Below, piece after piece: positions 27,160 through 34,258 of a stretch of DNA of 64,000 nt. The stretch covers positions 14,820 to 78,819 of the forward strand of contig JBGAHA010000011.1 in the NCBI GenBank assembly GCA_044226385.1, written 5' to 3'. Under the pieces are notes generated by a model. It ran no database searches. It had not been told where the DNA came from and was given only the letters and a program-made list of their open reading frames with translations. A program made the translations under genes and the position numbers. The stretch comes from Phycisphaerales bacterium. Its GTDB lineage: Bacteria; Planctomycetota; Phycisphaerae; Phycisphaerales; UBA1924. Position 1 is the stretch's first letter, and each line of letters starts with the position of its first letter.

Positions 27160-30100
27160 TCACAGCACGCTGACGTCCCAGTGATCGTGCGCCGCATCGA
27201 AGGCAAACTGCACGACCTCGCCCTCCACGTTGCTCGCCAGCACGAACAGCTGCGAGTTGGCGTTGGCAAAGCCCGTCACCTGGCCCACGAGCGAACTGGT
27301 GATCTCCGCGGGGGGCGTGATCTCCGCCACCTGCCACGTCTGCACGTTCAGCGACCAGCGGAAGATCGCCAGGTTCCCCTGCTCGGTCAGGCCGGCGACC
27401 ACGATGTCACCCGCGACGGAGCTGAACGACGACGCCGTGCCCGAGGCAAAGTCCGGCGCGTTGGCAAGCAACGTCATGTCGGTGACCTGCCAGTCGTACC
27501 CAGGCGCCCACCACAGCGCGATGGTGTGGCCCATCGCATCGGTTCCCAGCACGTTCACGCCGCCCCAGGGCGTCACCGATACGCTCACCGTCCCCACAAG
27601 CTTCTGTGCGCCGGTGATTTCCGTCAGGTTGCTGTAGACCCAGTGGTCGAGCCCCGGCGCCCACCACACGGCCGTCACGTCACCGTTGGCGTCCACGGCG
27701 ATGACGTTCATCCCGCCCCACGGGACCGAGTACGACTCGATGTCGCCGTTCCACGCGGGCTGGTCCTGTCCTGTCTGGGCGAGGTGCTCTCCGAGGTTGA
27801 CAAAGTTCCAGTTGAAGCCCGTGGAGCCTTCGGAGCCGTCCTGCCAGTAGGCGACGAGCTCTCCCTGGGCGTTCTTGCCGAAGATGTTGCTGTTTCCCCA
27901 GGGCGTGGTCAGCACGTCCAGGTCGTCGGAAGCGAAGGCCTCGGCGCCGGGGACGTCGTCGGTCAGGTTGCGTTCATGCCACGAGCCGTCCTCGTTGTTC
28001 ACGAACAGCATCAGGCCCTGGCTGGTCTGCCCCGCGGCGTACCGCCGCGCGTGCGCCCCCGCGCCCGAGCCCTGCTCGTGCTTCACCTCGTCCACCACCA
28101 CCAGATCCCCCTGGATCGCCGGAGCATCGTCGAACAGATCGTGCAGGTTGTACTCCGTCGATCCGCCCTGGCCGTCCTCCACCGTCACGATCGGCCGGCC
28201 CATCTCGTCCACCCGGGCCCGCGCTCGCCGACCATCGTTGTTGGTCGGTTCGTTGGGGTCGGTGTTGTTCACCTCCACCCGCGGAGACTTGATCGTGATC
28301 GCCAGCGGGTCCGACCGCTTGCCTTCCCGGCCTCCCACGGTGATCGACGCCGTCACCAGGTGCGTCCCGTCGGTCAGCACGGTCGTGCCGTCGGTCTGCA
28401 CGTACAGATGACCCTCGTCGCTGCGGACCAGGCCGCTGCCCAGCCGCACCCCGTCCACATAGAGGTTCACGAACATCCCGCGCTGCACGTCGTCCACCCG
28501 GAACGCGAGGGACCGGCCCGCGGCGTTGTTCAGCGGCGTGATGTTGTCCGAGTCGCTCGCCCCCAGGTCAAAGGCCGGTGCCAGGTCGGGCACGGCGGGA
28601 ACCGCCACGTCGTCGTACCCGTGATCCTCGCCCGAGTCTCCGCCGCCCGAGTCCCCGTTGCCGTGGTCGTCGGTGAAGGTGATGATGGTCACCGTGCCGT
28701 CCCCCGCGTTGGCGACGGCGATGCCGTCCCCGCCGCTGGCCGAGAAGATCCCCGGGGCGGCCCAGGAAGGCTGGTCTCCGACCTTGATCACGCCGAACAG
28801 GGTGACTTTGCCCTCGAGATCGATGCGGTGGCCGCTGATGGAATCCTCCCCGCGGCTGACGGTCATCAGCACGAACCCGAAGCCAGGCTTGAAGTAGCCC
28901 AGGGTGTGCACCGGCTGGTCCCCGACATTGATCGTGGACCCGCTCGTGAACGTGCCGCCGGACTGGCCCAGCAGGATGGACACCGTGTCGGAATCGGTGT
29001 TGGTCACGATCAGGTCGGCCCTCAGATCCCCGTTCACGTCGTTGACGACCACGCTCGACGGGCCCGCGCCCACCTGGTACGTCGCCGCCGCTTCGAACAG
29101 CCCCGAACCGCCCCCGGCGAAGTCGAAGTACATGTTCGAGGCCAGCAGCGTTGCGAGGAACGCGTCGATCGAGAAGTCCTCCGATCCTCCTCCTCCGCCC
29201 TCCCCGCCCCCGTTGCCTCCGGAATGACCGCCCGAGTCGTCCTCGAAGTTGCCGAAGAGCTCCTGCAGTTCCGCTTCTGAAGGCATCCGGTGCAGGTGGT
29301 GGTCAAAAATCCCCTTGAGCACGCTCGCCCGGTAATCGGGCGTGTCGATCAGGCCCTTGACGAAGTCTTCCCGGGAAAGTCCGCCGTTGATCAGCGCCGC
29401 CGCGGCCTGCGCGATCTGCGGGTCCACGGGGCGTCCCAGCAGATCCGCGTACACGTGGTTGACGAACGCGACGACGTTGCTCTCGGCCCGGGTGCTGAAG
29501 TACGCGCTGGATCCCAGCACGGCCTCCTTGACTTCCTCGATCTCGCCGCGCTGGGCAAACACGGCGGCGAGGGTCTGCATCTCCTGATCGGTTGGATTTC
29601 GCCCCATGTACTGGGTGAACAGGTGGCGAATCTGCGACTGGGAGAATTCCGTGCTGCCGATCAGCTGCGTCACCAGTTCAAGCCGGCCGCTCGCCCCCGC
29701 GTTCAGCAGCTCACCGGCCTGCGTCCGCTCCGGCGTGGTCGGCACGCGATCAAACAGGTCCCGGTACAGCCGCGTGATCAGCTCGTCGGTCCCGACGCTC
29801 GCGCGGTGGTTGAGCAGCACCGAGACCGTGCCGCCGGCATTGGTCGTGATGATGTCGGCCGCCCCGTCCTGGTTCACGTCCCGCGCAATCACGCTCGTCG
29901 GGCCGCTTCCAACGTCATAGCTCGCCGAGAGCTCGATCCCCGTCGGGTTCTCCGGGTCCCCCGTGTCGACGATCCGGTAGACCGCCGCGCGGTTCTGCGC
30001 GCTGAACGCGATCACAATCTCCATGCTGCCGTCGGCATTCAGGTGCGCCGGCGTCGCCGATGTGGCCCCCTCGGGCAACTGGATCCCTCCGTGGTCCACG

Positions 30101-30531
30101 AATCCGCCCTCACCATCGTTGGTGAGCAGCGCCAGGCGTCCGCCCGCCGCGTCCAGCGTGACCAGGTCGGGGGAGCCATCGTCGTTGATGTCCAGCGCCC
30201 AGGCTCGTGTGGGCGTCCCTCCGACGTCGTAGTTCACCGCGTCATGAAACCCGTTCGCCGAGTTGAGCAGCACCGAGAGCGTCCCCGCCCCGGCGTTGCT
30301 CGTCGCCACGTCCATCATCCCGTTGCCGTCAAAGTCGGCGACCACCACGGAGCTCGCCCCCGCCCCCGCGACCAGATCGATCCGCTCGAACCCATCCCCG
30401 CTCAGCAGCTTCCGGGCTTCCAGCGGCTGCACGTCGTGCGGCCCCATCGCCCGTCCCGCTCGCCGTCGCACGTCCCGCCCGGAAGAAGCGCCGCGAGCAT
30501 TCGTTGCGGGACCGGTCATCGCATGGGCCAT
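27160..30531 (-). CDS. Large secreted FG-GAP/VCBS-repeat protein with DUF4214-like segments and a C-terminal Trp-rich propeller-like repeat region
   Basis: N-terminal 'LEARKLLSG'. FG-GAP repeats ('VVADFDGNGMMDVATSN', 'DINDDGSPDLVTLD', 'DVNQDGAADIITTN', 'DVNGDLRADLIVTN'). DUF4214-like 'LYRDLFDRVPT', 'VNHVYADLLGRPVD'. Repeats of 'PWGGxNVxxxDAxGxxxAxWWAPG' in the last roughly 400 aa. Start at ATG 30531 (MAHAMTG); the ORF is open to 30687. Confidence 0.75.
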   Translation of the reverse strand: MAHAMTGPATNARGASSGRDVRRRAGRAMGPHDVQPLEARKLLSGDGFERIDLVAGAGASSVVVADFDGNGMMDVATSNAGAGTLSVLLNSANGFHDAVNYDVGGTPTRAWALDINDDGSPDLVTLDAAGGRLALLTNDGEGGFVDHGGIQLPEGATSATPAHLNADGSMEIVIAFSAQNRAAVYRIVDTGDPENPTGIELSASYDVGSGPTSVIARDVNQDGAADIITTNAGGTVSVLLNHRASVGTDELITRLYRDLFDRVPTTPERTQAGELLNAGASGRLELVTQLIGSTEFSQSQIRHLFTQYMGRNPTDQEMQTLAAVFAQRGEIEEVKEAVLGSSAYFSTRAESNVVAFVNHVYADLLGRPVDPQIAQAAAALINGGLSREDFVKGLIDTPDYRASVLKGIFDHHLHRMPSEAELQELFGNFEDDSGGHSGGNGGGEGGGGGSEDFSIDAFLATLLASNMYFDFAGGGSGLFEAAATYQVGAGPSSVVVNDVNGDLRADLIVTNTDSDTVSILLGQSGGTFTSGSTINVGDQPVHTLGYFKPGFGFVLMTVSRGEDSISGHRIDLEGKVTLFGVIKVGDQPSWAAPGIFSASGGDGIAVANAGDGTVTIITFTDDHGNGDSGGGDSGEDHGYDDVAVPAVPDLAPAFDLGASDSDNITPLNNAAGRSLAFRVDDVQRGMFVNLYVDGVRLGSGLVRSDEGHLYVQTDGTTVLTDGTHLVTASITVGGREGKRSDPLAITIKSPRVEVNNTDPNEPTNNDGRRARARVDEMGRPIVTVEDGQGGSTEYNLHDLFDDAPAIQGDLVVVDEVKHEQGSGAGAHARRYAAGQTSQGLMLFVNNEDGSWHERNLTDDVPGAEAFASDDLDVLTTPWGNSNIFGKNAQGELVAYWQDGSEGSTGFNWNFVNLGEHLAQTGQDQPAWNGDIESYSVPWGGMNVIAVDANGDVTAVWWAPGLDHWVYSNLTEITGAQKLVGTVSVSVTPWGGVNVLGTDAMGHTIALWWAPGYDWQVTDMTLLANAPDFASGTASSFSSVAGDIVVAGLTEQGNLAIFRWSLNVQTWQVAEITPPAEITSSLVGQVTGFANANSQLFVLASNVEGEVVQFAFDAAHDHWDVSVL

Positions 30532-30760
30532 CGAGGAAGCTCCTTGAACCGAGGGCAATCGACTCTTGAATATCCCATTTGAATCGGGCGGGCGGCCATC
30601 CACCTTCGTTCCCGGTCCTGGGAAGCAGAAAGTTCGTTCCCAGCGCCGGTGCCGCCCCGCGCAGGGCCGACCGCCGGCATCTCCCAAGAGGCGTCCGGAA
30701 GGAATCTGATCGGAAGAAGTAGAAAATCTGGCCGGTATGGGGTGTTTTCACCGGCGCCGG

Positions 30761-32374
30761 TTATCGGGACGTCTTGCCCGCCGGGATTACCGCTACCAGG
30801 GTCGCGAACGCGGTCCCAACCATCAGTCGCCACGGCGCCGCGAGCGTGGGGCACTCCAATCCCGGCCACCACCGCGGCATGATCCCCGGCTGCAGCAGTG
30901 TCACGACCACCAGGCCCGCGACCAGCGCGGCGATCGCCGAGGCCACCGTCCCTCGCCGCGTGAACAGGGCGGCGAAGAAAACGCCCAGCATCCCCGCGTA
31001 GGCAAAGCCCATGACCCCCAGCACAAAGTCCAGGATCGCCTCCCCGTTGGCCTGCTTCCACGGGATGCAGATCATCGCGAACGCGCCCAGCACCACGCCC
31101 CACCCCGCCGTCGACCATCGGCCCACCGACACGTAGTGCGCATCGCTCCGCCCCGGCCGCAGCGGCCGGTACACGTCCGAGACCAGCGTTGCGGCCATGG
31201 AATTGAGGGATGAATTGATCCCCGCCGGCCCCGCCGCCATCACGCCGGCGAGGACCAGCCCCGCCGCCCCCGCGGGCATTTCGTGCAGCGCGAACTTGAG
31301 GAAGACTTCCCCGGTGTCCCCCGTGAGGTACCCCGGCTCAGCCCGCCCGGTGATCTGCGGGCACTTGTAGAAGACCCAGAGCAGCAGCCCGATGACGGCG
31401 AAAACGAGCACGGTCGGGATGCTCATGAGCACGCCCGTCATCACCGACCAGCTTCCCTTGCGGGCGTTCTCGCAGGCGAGCAGGCGCTGCACCAGGTCCT
31501 GATCGGTGCCGTACGCGGCCAGCAGCAGCAGCGTCCACCCCGTGCAGACCGTGATCAATGTGTAAGGATCGGCGAAGCTGAACCCCCCCGGACCTTCCCA
31601 ACCCAGTGACAGGAACTGGAGCTTGGAGCCCCCCCCGGGCAGGCCGTGCCGGAGCGCGTCCACCACGGTGCTCGCCGGCGCGTGGATCCCGCCCCACAGC
31701 ACCGCGATCGTCACCACCGCCGCGCCCAGGTATACACCGACCTGGAGCACATCGGTCCAGATCACGCTCGTCAGGCCACCGGCGAGAGTGAAGAGCGTGC
31801 CAAATCCCATGAAGAAGAGAATCGCCAGGGACACGTGCGCGGCGGATGCATCACCGAAGACCGCCATGGAGACGGGGATTGATCCCACGAAGACGCGGGA
31901 ACCGCTCGCAAAGACCCGGCCCAGCATGTACGTCGCGCTCGCCGCGAGCTTGGCGCCCGCTCCGAAACGGTGCTCGAGCAGCTGATACGGCGTGCCGACG
32001 CCCAGCCGGTAATACGCGGGGATGAAGGCCCACGCCAGGATTACCGCCGCGAGGATCCCCCCCAGGTTGGTGGAGAGGTAGCGAAGGTCGCCCTTGTACG
32101 CCGTCTCCGGAACACCCAGCACCGTCGCCGCCGACTGCGCCGTCGCCAGGAACGACACCGCCACGGCCCACACGGGCATGTGCCCGCCGCCCTTGAAATA
32201 CGCCGCCGCATCGGTTCGCCGCGCCCGGACCGCGAACCACACCCCGGACCCGATCAGCAGCGCGAAATACCCGGCCAGCACCACCCAGTCCCAGGGTCCC
32301 AGCGTCGGATGGGCCGCCGCCCCCTGCCCGGGAAGATCCGGCGCTAGCGCAAGCGTCGGGGTAGCCCCAAACAC
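30761..32374 (-). CDS. Sodium:solute symporter (SSF) family transporter
   Basis: 537 aa with about 13 hydrophobic segments. SSF-like N-terminal region 'YFKGGGHMPVWAVAVSFLATAQSAATVLGVPETAYKGDLRYL'. Confidence 0.85.
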   Translation of the reverse strand: MFGATPTLALAPDLPGQGAAAHPTLGPWDWVVLAGYFALLIGSGVWFAVRARRTDAAAYFKGGGHMPVWAVAVSFLATAQSAATVLGVPETAYKGDLRYLSTNLGGILAAVILAWAFIPAYYRLGVGTPYQLLEHRFGAGAKLAASATYMLGRVFASGSRVFVGSIPVSMAVFGDASAAHVSLAILFFMGFGTLFTLAGGLTSVIWTDVLQVGVYLGAAVVTIAVLWGGIHAPASTVVDALRHGLPGGGSKLQFLSLGWEGPGGFSFADPYTLITVCTGWTLLLLAAYGTDQDLVQRLLACENARKGSWSVMTGVLMSIPTVLVFAVIGLLLWVFYKCPQITGRAEPGYLTGDTGEVFLKFALHEMPAGAAGLVLAGVMAAGPAGINSSLNSMAATLVSDVYRPLRPGRSDAHYVSVGRWSTAGWGVVLGAFAMICIPWKQANGEAILDFVLGVMGFAYAGMLGVFFAALFTRRGTVASAIAALVAGLVVVTLLQPGIMPRWWPGLECPTLAAPWRLMVGTAFATLVAVIPAGKTSR

Positions 32375-32566
32375 CGTGCGAACAATGAATGGAACGCTGC
32401 TGACGGGCGTAAGAAAGCCTCCAGAGAGCGGTCCACAGCGGCAACGGCCGGGACCATTGGATGGCTCATCGGGAGATCAGGGGCGGTTTCAAGAAAGGTG
32501 GGCCCGGCGAACGCGATCCGAAGGGCCTTTTGGCCGCCCCGAGGGGCATCGCGTCGCAGCAGGTTC

Positions 32567-32660
32567 AAAAAAACACTCGACCACGTGTTTCCGCCCGTGG
32601 TCGAGTGATAGGAGGAGGGGACAAGACTTGTCGAGGAACCCGGTTTCCCGGTTTCCCCTG
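32567..32660 (-). ncRNA. Candidate sRNA module 1 (diverged copy)
   Basis: Perfect 10-bp stem ctcgaccacg/cgtggtcgag with the conserved loop tgtttccgcc (32576-32605). It is preceded on the plus strand by aaaaaaa (a U7 tail on the minus strand). 'ataggaggagggg' follows on the plus strand (CU-rich on the minus strand). Confidence 0.5.
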
Positions 32661-32816
32661 GTAATCCCAACGTCTCGCGTCTCCGCAAACCGTCGAGCGT
32701 CTTACAAGGGTCTATCCGCAGCGACCTGCCCCCAGGTTCCACGCCAGATCAAAGTTTTTTTCGGTCGACGACCATGCCGACGCAACTGGCTGTTGCGCAA
32801 CGACTTAGAAGAATCG

Positions 32817-32909
32817 AAAAAACTCACCACCCGCGTTCCCTTCGTGGGATCAGGGGGTGGTGAGTTAAGCGGCGGAGAAATTCTGGCAACCGGTCGCAAC
32901 CGCTGCCAG
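32817..32909 (-). ncRNA. Candidate sRNA module 2 (most diverged copy)
   Basis: 10-bp stem ctcaccaccc/gggtggtgag (32823-32864) with a longer, different loop. It is preceded by aaaaaa on the plus strand (a U6 tail on the minus strand). 'gcggcggagaaa' follows, then a CTGGCA/TGCCAG hairpin at 32883-32909. Confidence 0.4.
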
Positions 32910-32915
32910 GGAACC

Positions 32916-32999
32916 AAGAAAGCTCGTCGCGTGTTTCCGCCCGCGGCGAGCTATAGGAGAAGAGGGACTCTGGTGATTCGCAACCCGTTCGGGTGCGAT
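32916..32999 (-). ncRNA. Candidate sRNA module 3 (diverged copy)
   Basis: Stem gctcgtcgcg/cgcggcgagc with the conserved loop tgtttccgcc (32922-32951), followed by 'tataggagaagaggg' and a second hairpin around 32979-32997. The U-tract is weaker (CUUUCUU on the minus strand). Confidence 0.4.
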
Positions 33000-33002
33000 T
33001 CG

Positions 33003-33083
33003 AAAACTCGACGCGTGTTTCCGCCCGCGGCGAGTTACAGGAGGAGAGAGACAAGAGACTGATCGGCCCTTTTCAGGGCCAGG
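33003..33083 (-). ncRNA. Candidate sRNA module 4 (81-nt unit)
   Basis: The minus strand reads CCUGGCCCUGAAAAGGGCCGAUCAGUCUCUUGUCUCUCUCCUCCUGUAACUCGCCGCGGGCGGAAACACGCGUCGAGUUUU. This gives a small hairpin, a CU-rich stretch, and a 9-bp GC-rich hairpin (33007-33034) followed by U4. Confidence 0.5.
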
Positions 33084-33164
33084 AAAACTCGACGCGTGTT
33101 TCCGCCCGCGGCGAGTTACAGGAGGAGAGAGACAAGAGGCTGATCGGCCCTTTTCAAGGCCAGG
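33084..33164 (-). ncRNA. Candidate sRNA module 5 (81-nt unit)
   Basis: Same architecture, with the main hairpin at 33088-33115. The small hairpin has one change (aggcc instead of gggcc), which gives a G-U pair only when read on the minus strand. Confidence 0.5.
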
Positions 33165-33245
33165 AAAACTCGACGCGTGTTTCCGCCCGCGGCGAGTTAC
33201 AGGAGGAGAGAGACAAGAGGCTGGTCGACCCTTTTCAGGGTCAGG
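33165..33245 (-). ncRNA. Candidate sRNA module 6 (81-nt unit)
   Basis: Main hairpin at 33169-33196. The small hairpin carries a compensatory double change (gaccc/gggtc instead of ggccc/gggcc), which preserves pairing. Confidence 0.5.
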
Positions 33246-33326
33246 AAAACTCGACGCGTGTTTCCGCCCGCGGCGAGTTACAGGAGGAGAGAGACAAGAG
33301 GCAGGTGAGCGGCCGGGTTTCCCCGT
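33246..33326 (-). ncRNA. Candidate sRNA module 7 (81-nt unit, first in minus-strand order)
   Basis: Main hairpin at 33250-33277 with the same CU-rich segment. Sequence on the 5' side (minus-strand sense) diverges from the other units. Confidence 0.45.
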
Positions 33327-33580
33327 TTCACTCGATTCAACCGTTCAGTCGTTCCCGTCTGGTCGGTCGTTCGTCTTGACGACCCAAAGGTGCCACAGGA
33401 ATGCGGATGTGCAACCGCACAGGCGGATTTTTCTGCATACCCCGCGCAGACTCGTCACAACGTGTGGATGTCACAGGGTTTAGAACAATCGCTGCCGGCA
33501 CCATTGGTGCCGCTGGCCCCACGGCCGCGAGGTATTTCGTGCTTGGCGGTGGTCGGCCCGCCCGGTCCGCGGTCCCCCGC

Positions 33581-34258
33581 TCAGGCGGGCACGAACGGGT
33601 TATCGCGCCTCTCCACCCCGACGGTGGTGGGTCCCCCGTGGCCGGGCAGGCACGTCGTCTCCGGGGGAAGCGTGTACAGGCGCGTGCGGATCGACCGCTC
33701 CAGCGTCTCAAAGTCCCCGCCCGGCAGGTCCGAGCGGCCGACGGAGCCGGCGAACAGCGTGTCCCCAACGAAGGCCGTCGCCGACGGGGCGTGGTAGAGG
33801 GTGATGCCCCCGGGCGAGTGTCCGGGCGTGTGCATCACCTTCCAGATGTGGGCGCCCAGCACCAGATCGTCCCCGTCCTGGAGCAGGCGGGCGGCGTCGG
33901 GCACGGTGAAGGGATGGCCCGCCCCGTCGCTGAGATTGAGCAGCGGGTTGCCGAGCCAGCCCGCTTCCGCCTTGTGAATCCAGATCGGAAGGTCTGGAAA
34001 TGCCTTCCGAACGTCACCGATCCCGCCAATGTGGTCGACATGGGCGTGCGTGAGCACAATGGCCGACGGGGTGAAGCGTTCGGTCTTGATATCGTGCAGC
34101 ACCTTTGCCGGTCCGAAGCTGGGGTCCACGATCCAGCACTGGCGGGTGCCGGGATCGGCAACCAGGTAGGTGTTGGTCTGCCAGGGTCCCAGCGGATACC
34201 CGCGGATCCACGGGATCCCGGGCGCAGGGGTGAGCGGGGACGAAGGGGCTTCTGGCAT
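33581..34258 (-). CDS. MBL-fold metallo-hydrolase (hydroxyacylglutathione hydrolase-like)
   Basis: 'IVLTHAHVDHIGG' (HxHxDH motif), 'MHTPGHSPGG', 'GDTLFAGSVGRSDLPGGD'. Confidence 0.85.
   Translation of the reverse strand: MPEAPSSPLTPAPGIPWIRGYPLGPWQTNTYLVADPGTRQCWIVDPSFGPAKVLHDIKTERFTPSAIVLTHAHVDHIGGIGDVRKAFPDLPIWIHKAEAGWLGNPLLNLSDGAGHPFTVPDAARLLQDGDDLVLGAHIWKVMHTPGHSPGGITLYHAPSATAFVGDTLFAGSVGRSDLPGGDFETLERSIRTRLYTLPPETTCLPGHGGPTTVGVERRDNPFVPA

Follow-up and report, generated by a model that had tools for sequence, protein, structure and literature searches.

The window analysed here is a stretch of 64,000 nucleotides from a Phycisphaerales bacterium (contig JBGAHA010000011.1, positions 14,820 to 78,819 of the forward strand). 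Within it, a gap of 1.2 kb is bounded by the genes of an SSF symporter (30761-32374) and of an MBL-fold hydrolase (33581-34258), which are both on the minus strand. The gap holds repeats of a small element that can be described, on the minus strand, as a spacer hairpin, a single-stranded segment, GUCUUGUCUCUCUCCUCCU, and a hairpin whose loop is usually GGCGGAAAC. An earlier reading of the same DNA, hereafter the original prediction, placed seven tandem RNA modules between these two genes, each capped by its own terminator. Here, we compared the repeats with their homologues in other genomes. The comparison indicates that they belong to a real, conserved family of small RNAs (sRNAs) of the order Phycisphaerales, read from the minus strand of the window.

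Both the flanking genes and the tandem array of the original prediction are confirmed. Tandem Repeats Finder reports the segment 33002-33302, with a period of 81, 3.7 copies and 97% matches. The 23-nt hairpin core CGCGTGTTTCCGCCCGCGGCGAG has five exact occurrences, where 0.01 are expected, and the purine block TACAGGAGGAGAGAGACAAGAG has four, where none is expected; GTGTTTCCGCCCG occurs exactly six times, once at 32585. A covariance model, R1, which was built from an alignment (A1) of 50 distinct units, finds six minus-strand units of the family in the window, with scores of 60-73.5 bits. A single unit is predicted to fold on this strand into a small hairpin, about 27 unpaired nucleotides that include UCUCUCUCCUCCU, a hairpin of 9-10 bp with a 10-nt loop, and a U-rich end. 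The consensus of the family has about 22 near-invariant, unpaired pyrimidine nucleotides, (G)UCUUGUCUCUCUC(UC)CUCCUCCUAU, followed by a covarying 10-bp stem with a loop that is usually GGCGGAAAC(A/G). The pyrimidine segment, or seed, includes the hexamer CCUCCU, which is the anti-Shine-Dalgarno (anti-SD) core of 16S rRNA. In the direction of the minus strand, the features of the gap are the following.

33387-33434, minus strand: promoter-like box of the five-unit array, a putative promoter, with an A-tract (33423-33434), a -35-like TTGCAC (33414-33409) and a -10-like GTGG+CACCTT (33392-33387).
33305-33380, minus strand: leader, about 75 nt long, that separates the -10-like box from unit 1, CGAACGACCG...GGGAACGACUGAACGG.
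33314-33325, minus strand: small CGGG-GAAA-CCCG hairpin that closes the leader in the predicted fold.
33241-33304, minus strand: unit 1, with CU-rich CUCUUGUCUCUCUCCUCCUGUAA, a 10-bp hairpin, loop GGCGGAAACA and a U4 tail (R1 71.7 bits, E = 1.6e-15).
33227-33242, minus strand: predicted spacer hairpin GACCCU-GAAA-AGGGUC between units 1 and 2, with compensatory changes relative to the next two spacers.
33160-33223, minus strand: unit 2 (R1 71.0 bits, E = 2.4e-15).
33146-33161, minus strand: predicted spacer hairpin GGCCUU-GAAA-AGGGCC, with a U·G pair that is valid on the minus strand only.
33079-33142, minus strand: unit 3 (R1 71.0 bits).
33065-33080, minus strand: predicted spacer hairpin GGCCCU-GAAA-AGGGCC.
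32998-33061, minus strand: unit 4 (R1 73.5 bits, E = 6.2e-16).
32975-33001, minus strand: predicted spacer hairpin of different sequence, GAAUCGCACCCGAACGGGUUGCGAAUC.
32914-32977, minus strand: unit 5, diverged, with seed GAGUCCCUCUUCUCCUAUAG and unchanged hairpin and loop (R1 60.0 bits, E = 9.8e-13).
32817-32866, minus strand: GC-rich hairpin with U6, not of the family (R1 8.1 bits), the probable intrinsic terminator for the transcript of units 1-5.
32712-32741, minus strand: conserved block TGGAACC-N17-TGCGGATAG upstream of unit 6, a candidate second promoter of putative sigma type.
32639-32657, minus strand: segment GGGAAACCGGGAAACCGGG directly before unit 6, in place of a spacer hairpin; an 8-nt repeat in Tandem Repeats Finder, conserved in all six relatives.
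32567-32631, minus strand: unit 6, a lone variant with seed GUCUUGUCCCCUCCUCCUAUCA, a perfect 12-bp stem, loop GGCGGAAACA and a U7 tail (R1 64.2 bits, E = 9.6e-14).

Homologous loci and contigs from our scans are labelled with L-numbers (L001, L035 and so on). The unit-5 variant occupies the matching array position in L035, L046, L068 and L105, and unit 6, which has a fold of -31.1 kcal/mol and carries the seed GUCUUGUCCCCUCCUCCU in its lone transcription unit, is near-identical in L035, L046, L068, L102 and L105. An alignment of the window with the same five loci shows the TGGAACC-N17-TGCGGATAG block, which all six genomes have kept, as an island in poorly conserved surroundings. The hairpin ACCGG-GAAA-CCGGGU at 32639-32657 is a pairing drawn by eye, and the minimum-free-energy fold of 32567-32650 pairs this segment otherwise. 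The hairpin and T-run at 32817-32866 are kept in all six genomes of the window's lineage, and the surrounding 84-nt segment (32817-32900) folds with -33.2 kcal/mol (z = -3.25). The original prediction had counted a hairpin at 32823-32864 as one of its seven modules. Six of these are family units, while the seventh fails with R1 (8.1 bits, E = 2.1, at 32814-32892), has no CU-rich segment, and is the separate GC-rich hairpin with U6 listed above.

The family extends well beyond the window. In a first scan, one genome per species of the GTDB set was searched with the pattern TGTTTCCGCCCG-N6-16-AGGAGRAG. This gave 108 stretches, in which nearly all true units came from bins of Phycisphaerales or Planctomycetota and many were tandem, for example seven units in L017 and five in L046. 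The string AGAGAG(AG)ACAAGAC, which lies outside the scan pattern, is almost invariant in the true units. The covariance-model search of relatives with R1 identified 153 units in 69 genome loci. The pattern of the first scan fixed the loop sequence; hence a second scan was made in metagenome contigs with the seed alone, TCTTGTCTCTCTC-N0-2-CTCCT, and gave 37 R1 matches, two of which are doubtful. In the 35 distinct sequences of the second scan, the loop is or contains GGCGGAAAC in 18 and GCGGAA in 26, and five have another loop. The hairpin loop is conserved, but it is not universal across the family. Many of its variants could, in a by-eye reading, close to a GAAA tetraloop capped by a G-C pair.

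Outside the window there are about 190 further units, in about 70 Phycisphaerales bins and about 20 metagenome contigs. The arrays consist of one to seven units, and neighbouring units are 75-169 nt apart. There is apparently one locus per genome. The apparent second matches in a bin sit at contig ends; L037, for example, visibly runs on into L010. The MBL-fold protein of the window was found only on a Logan contig of 2.6 kb, which breaks off within the first repeat. L004 (RHKP01000004.1), a contig of a metagenome-assembled genome named 'Cyanobacteria bacterium', has a typical unit with its promoter box. This contig is probably mis-binned, since its unit is near-identical to Phycisphaerales units such as that of L071.

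The 10-bp stem is strongly supported by covariation. In the aligned units, 97.4% of the stem cells are paired, and both partners have changed in seven of the ten pairs. Covariation scores 0.608, compared with 0.281 ± 0.018 in shuffles, and none of 500 shuffles reaches 0.608; in slid registers of the stem, 30-39% of the cells pair. RNAalifold returns the same single helix and nothing else, with the CU-rich part unpaired. The CU-rich segments are likewise unpaired in the centroid fold of an 801-nt minus-strand transcript (z = -4.1), and the unpaired state of the seed is a well-established feature of the predicted folds. The stem cells of 126 distinct units comprise 1089 Watson-Crick, 128 G·U and 26 A·C combinations, so that the strand carrying the helix is the one equivalent to the minus strand of the window. 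Conservation, covariation of the stem and strand are established by these alignments. They bear out the minus-strand structured RNA with a single-stranded CU-rich core that was originally proposed, with which the promoter box and the U-rich terminators described below also agree, and the selection on RNA structure, now visible in about 190 homologous units with a covarying stem. The original view that the G·U evidence was split between the strands does not hold family-wide.

The second small hairpin of the original prediction is also present, with the compensatory change from ggccc/gggcc to gaccc/gggtc. Spacers of the family have a mean fold z of -2.8, and 89% of them lie below -1. Their hairpins often have GAAA or GGAAAC loops like that of the main hairpin, as at 33227-33242, 33146-33161 and 33314-33325 in the window. 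GGAAAC is found in 16 of 75 spacer hairpins, where 0.8 are expected. The GAAA/GGAAAC loop may be a recognition element shared by the spacer hairpins and the main hairpin.

These data bear directly on the alternative of the original prediction, in which a purine-rich RNA from the plus strand would sponge CsrA/RsmA with its UUACAGGAGGAG motifs. Each unit indeed provides one GGA-containing motif, and the plus strand of the array folds as well, with z = -1.9. However, the 128 G·U cells would turn into C·A mismatches on that strand, the conserved helix is broken up when a unit is folded as plus strand, and the GGA motifs are single-stranded between the hairpins rather than in hairpin loops. Moreover, the promoter box and the U-rich terminators face the minus strand, and tblastn found no csrA in the window and the fragments of the other loci, which is weak evidence. 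We consider a plus-strand sponge very improbable and rejected it.

Readings that do not involve an RNA were rejected as well. The repeats are regularly spaced, and open reading frames (ORFs) of the plus strand run through the array (32993-33379, 128 aa, and 32094-33062, 322 aa), as could be expected of a coding 27-aa repeat, a dispersed DNA repeat of the REP or MITE type, or a CRISPR-like or protein-binding DNA array. However, the unit periods vary between 75 and 169 nt, and 51 out of 80 cannot be divided by three. In Pfam, neither of the two ORFs reaches the curated cut-off, the one sub-threshold match being of 15 residues to DUF6723. There are apparently no dispersed copies but one locus per genome, and the spacers are structured and mutually related, unlike the unique spacers of CRISPR arrays. 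The sole match in IMG/VR is a chance match, and no link to phages was found there. The compensatory and G·U changes point to selection on a single-stranded transcript, and a non-RNA origin of the array is accordingly most unlikely.

The signals around the arrays are arranged in a consistent order. Ahead of the first unit, in nearly all arrays, there is an A-tract, followed by xTGGCA, about 17 nt, GTGG-CAnnTT, and 6-7 nt to the GUCUUG that starts the unit. This sigma-70-like box, with its -10-like element, precedes 51 of 62 first units and none of 79 internal units. The leader CGAACGACCG...GGGAACGACUGAACGG seen in the window is conserved in its closest relatives (L035, L046, L068, L072 and L105); distant lineages have no leader, and their -10 box is 6-7 nt ahead of GUCUUG. 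T-runs of 5-7 follow 39 of 70 last units and 3 of 86 non-last units, and the T-run is of three or fewer in 78 of the 86. Several arrays that lack a long T-run at the last unit have an extra GC hairpin and T-run downstream. The U-tails of internal units are mostly of 2-3 U family-wide; in the array of the window they are U4 in four of the five units and U3 in the fifth. A GC-rich hairpin with at least five U, as is typical of an intrinsic terminator, is found at 32817-32866 (U6), at unit 6 (U7) and at those 39 last units, whereas internal units end in 2-4 U. The placement of both signals is established by these counts.

With a box before first units only, and with long U-runs mainly after last units, an array is probably expressed as a single multi-unit transcript, with one promoter, one strong terminator and possible processing at the junctions between units. 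Before internal units, all loci have a semi-conserved junction, YYYGAC(G/A)RNG|UCUUG, and this is a candidate ribonuclease site that would give internal units the 5' end of the primary transcript. Seven independent transcripts, each with its own terminator, as originally proposed, are probably not produced, since internal units have no promoter and mostly 2-3 U; one precursor per array fits better. The arrangement in the window points to two transcription units, namely five copies closed by a terminator and, after these, a single variant copy that has a box of its own. The GGAAC of the latter box (32712-32741) resembles the -35 element of extracytoplasmic function (ECF) sigma promoters. An earlier guess for this second promoter, TTGCGC...CATGGT at about 32770-32800, is not conserved in the relatives and was dropped, TGGAACC-N17-TGCGGATAG being preferred.

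The surroundings of the arrays are partly conserved. A frequent gene order is tsf, Fe/Mn superoxide dismutase, array, SSF symporter and GH20 hydrolase. Among 48 loci with enough flanking sequence, the symporter is directly downstream in 18, and the others have unrelated or convergent genes at this position. The median gap between array and symporter is about 90 nt (all 23 members of the SSF cluster). In several lineages, the symporter starts about 6 nt behind a conserved GCGATAG box of its own, which is located after the terminator of the sRNA. In L020, L024, L049, L062, L067 and L107, a conserved GGGCGATAG(T/C) box lies 20-45 nt past the last T-run and about 6 nt before the ATG of the symporter, which suggests a separate promoter for this gene and an mRNA without a leader.

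This arrangement has to be weighed against the possibility that the array is a cis-acting 5' leader of the symporter, in which the hairpins would serve as attenuators or the CU-rich segments would sequester the ribosome-binding site of that gene. The symporter on the same strand, directly downstream in the window as in the 18 other loci and often followed by GH20, speaks in its favour. However, a strong U5-U7 terminator closes the last unit, the downstream gene is unrelated or convergent at many loci, and we found no conserved sequence complementary to the seed upstream of the symporter start. The unrelated and convergent genes, together with the symporter's own GCGATAG box past the terminator, are better explained by an independent gene whose neighbourhood is partly conserved than by an obligatory leader, and a cis-acting role is improbable.

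Three other features of this neighbourhood can be mentioned. A conserved GAUCUCCCGAUGAGC, also present in L068 and L105, lies upstream of the symporter at about 32470-32500 of the minus strand, and in the window its AUG opens an out-of-frame upstream ORF of about 44 codons. In L046, about 14 copies of the heptamer GGCACTG are found between the sRNA terminator and the symporter, with a degenerate trace in L035. Just downstream of the symporter, the window has an ORF of 1175 aa (27160-30687, minus strand) with FG-GAP repeats and DUF4214, and L046 has a homologue of it behind its symporter.

An apparent promoter and terminator of their own, together with independence from the neighbouring genes, are what is expected of trans-acting sRNAs. 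The best-supported reading, to which we assign a probability of roughly 0.6, is that the family consists of trans-acting sRNAs whose CU-rich segment covers ribosome-binding sites. Transcription, processing and targets of these RNAs we infer from their sequence signals. In the proposed mechanism, a sigma-70-like promoter near 33390-33430 would drive the leader and five units, ending at the hairpin with U6 at 32817-32866, and the second box at 32712-32741 would drive the lone variant unit, ending in U7 at 32567. Internal units, promoterless and with short U-tails, would either be processed from the precursor at GAC(G/A)RNG|UCUUG or be active while joined. The exposed CU-rich segment would pair with the purine-rich ribosome-binding sites of target mRNAs (GGAGG, GGAGGAGAGA), and pairing would block the initiation of translation, trigger mRNA decay, or both. 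The dose would rise with the number of tandem copies, and a chaperone may be recruited by the conserved loops of the GAAA type. In the host genomes, GGAGG/AGGAG motifs are most frequent at 14-9 nt ahead of the first ATG of long ORFs; therefore, SD pairing is in use in these genomes. Individual start sites have 10-12 nt of complementarity to the seed, for example GGAGGAGAGAuuccAUG in L056.

Several results weigh against trans-acting sRNAs. In about 570 kb of loci, 9-mers complementary to the seed are not enriched (66 against 68 in a control of the same composition), and a target search in the same loci gave no conserved target. A tblastn search with Hfq, CsrA and ProQ of E. coli found none of them in the window and the loci, which are genome fragments and by far too small a sample for a conclusion. 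A simple consensus scan of the region for promoters and terminators gave no match; its consensus and loop limits are unfit for these signals, and the hairpins were missed because their loops exceed the range of 3-8 nt that the terminator scan allows. Given the short internal U-tails, the units may never occur as separate RNAs. Finally, the approximately 22 near-invariant nucleotides and the conserved loop exceed what a short seed needs, and could be a protein-binding site.

The last point leads to a protein sponge comparable to CsrB/RsmZ or CrcZ, in which a multi-unit transcript titrates an RNA-binding protein. The pyrimidine strand and the GAAA-type loop of each unit would together bind an S1-like, KH or cold-shock protein, or a novel chaperone of the Planctomycetota, and the copy number would set the capacity. 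A single promoter box for all units with weak internal terminators, a near-invariant segment longer than typical seeds, the GCGGAA loop in 26 of 35 seed-selected units, the excess of GGAAAC in spacer hairpins and the unenriched mRNA sites all speak for such a role. However, about 20 of 70 loci have a single unit, some of these being cut by contig ends, and L155, L163 and L209 keep the CU-rich strand with quite different loops. No candidate protein partner is encoded at the locus, where the neighbours are tsf, superoxide dismutase, the symporter and GH20, and pairing with SD sequences would be the simpler explanation of the exact anti-SD hexamer. We regard a sponge as the main rival reading, possible but doubtful.

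A related and similarly tentative alternative is that of a multivalent decoy transcript, in which up to seven CCUCCU strands, each resembling the 3' end of 16S rRNA and placed beside a GAAA-loop hairpin, would globally titrate SD-bearing mRNAs or an RNA-binding protein associated with translation. If this were true, Phycisphaerales would have a dosage-tunable RNA brake on SD-dependent initiation, to which the lone variant unit behind its ECF-like box would add a stress-specific input.

To our knowledge, no regulatory sRNA has been characterised in Planctomycetota. As a family of trans-acting sRNAs, the elements described here would be the first well-supported sRNA family of this understudied phylum, strongly conserved and order-wide. 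The sequence alone displays its promoter box, its seed, its covarying hairpin and its terminators, and offers a first view of the likely promoter and terminator signals of Phycisphaerales. The model could be used as an Rfam entry and for the annotation of metagenome bins, in which the assembly is often interrupted within the array, L001 being an example.

A comparison with known systems supports the original prediction, in which the unit was not recognised as any described RNA family. Rfam 15 has no match at the gathering score in the whole window, and at E <= 10 the region 32300-33600 returns noise only (P35 22.8/70, RsaE 18.1/79 and CrfA 14.5/38, as bits over gathering score). The literature was searched by taxon, by topic and with sequence strings, and no description of this RNA was found. 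As judged from these searches, the sRNA family is undescribed, and its general kind is a known one.

RsaE/RoxS of Firmicutes also has a C-rich single-stranded motif before a terminator hairpin and targets ribosome-binding sites. Its match here is on the same strand but weak (18.1 bits against a gathering score of 79, E = 4.1), motif and architecture differ, and the present RNA is not a member. CsrB/RsmZ-type sponges of CsrA present GGA in hairpin loops, whereas the GGA motifs here lie outside such loops and the helix is supported on the opposite strand only. The NsiR1 genes of Nostoc/Anabaena are tandem, near-identical short sRNA genes in one intergenic region, which is the style of array seen here. 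The analogy, drawn in the original prediction, fails in that every NsiR1 repeat has its own promoter and terminator, while the box is absent from all internal units here and long U-runs occur mainly at the last one. The sRNAs LhrC1-5 of Listeria monocytogenes are multicopy and in part tandem, and they pair with ribosome-binding sites through CU-rich (UCCC) motifs. They differ in that their motifs are short, several per RNA, and located in loops as well as single strands, and in that promoter and terminator are separate for each lhrC gene. Their host is a Firmicute, and no covariance-model match to them was found in the window.

The architecture is closest to that of Yfr1, which has a very conserved, CU-containing single-stranded motif between two stem-loops that is thought to pair with targets (PMC6778093). 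The layout of spacer hairpin, seed and hairpin is the same here. The motif sequence is a different one, Yfr1 is single-copy and cyanobacterial, and it has no Rfam match in the window. The idea of a relationship to Yfr2, based on GGAAACA loops, was dropped, as this string is absent from the Yfr1/Yfr2 paper.

In function, the closest analogues would be the cuckoo RNAs, which include CcsR1-4 (RSs0680a-d) of Rhodobacter sphaeroides and SmelC397 and others in Rhizobiales. They are defined by a CCUCCUCCC motif in the loops of 2-4 adjacent hairpins, have an anti-SD-like motif and covarying stems, are co-transcribed in clusters of as many as nine copies that are followed by a terminator, and bind Hfq (PMC4615179). 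In both cases, every module has a pyrimidine-rich, anti-SD-like motif that stays fixed while the stems undergo compensatory changes. Both form clusters (up to nine copies in cuckoo, one to seven here) with one promoter and a terminator-like hairpin in last position, which for the present family is deduced from sequence, and both are found in partly conserved intergenic neighbourhoods. However, the CCUCCUCCC motif of cuckoo is in hairpin loops, while UCUUGUCUCUCUCCUCCU is here single-stranded on the 5' side of a hairpin with the loop GGCGGAAACA. A cuckoo cluster is transcribed together with an upstream DUF1127 gene, whereas the promoter box is here directly before the RNA. The hosts of cuckoo are Alphaproteobacteria and not Planctomycetota, and there is no similarity of sequence or covariance model between the two. 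The family described here is thus a member of neither cuckoo/CcsR nor Yfr1, its closest analogues in function and in architecture, respectively. As an independent and distant case of the strategy of cuckoo/CcsR and LhrC, in which anti-SD-like sRNAs are present in tandem copies, it suggests by analogy the convergent evolution of a dosage-tunable brake on the initiation of translation.

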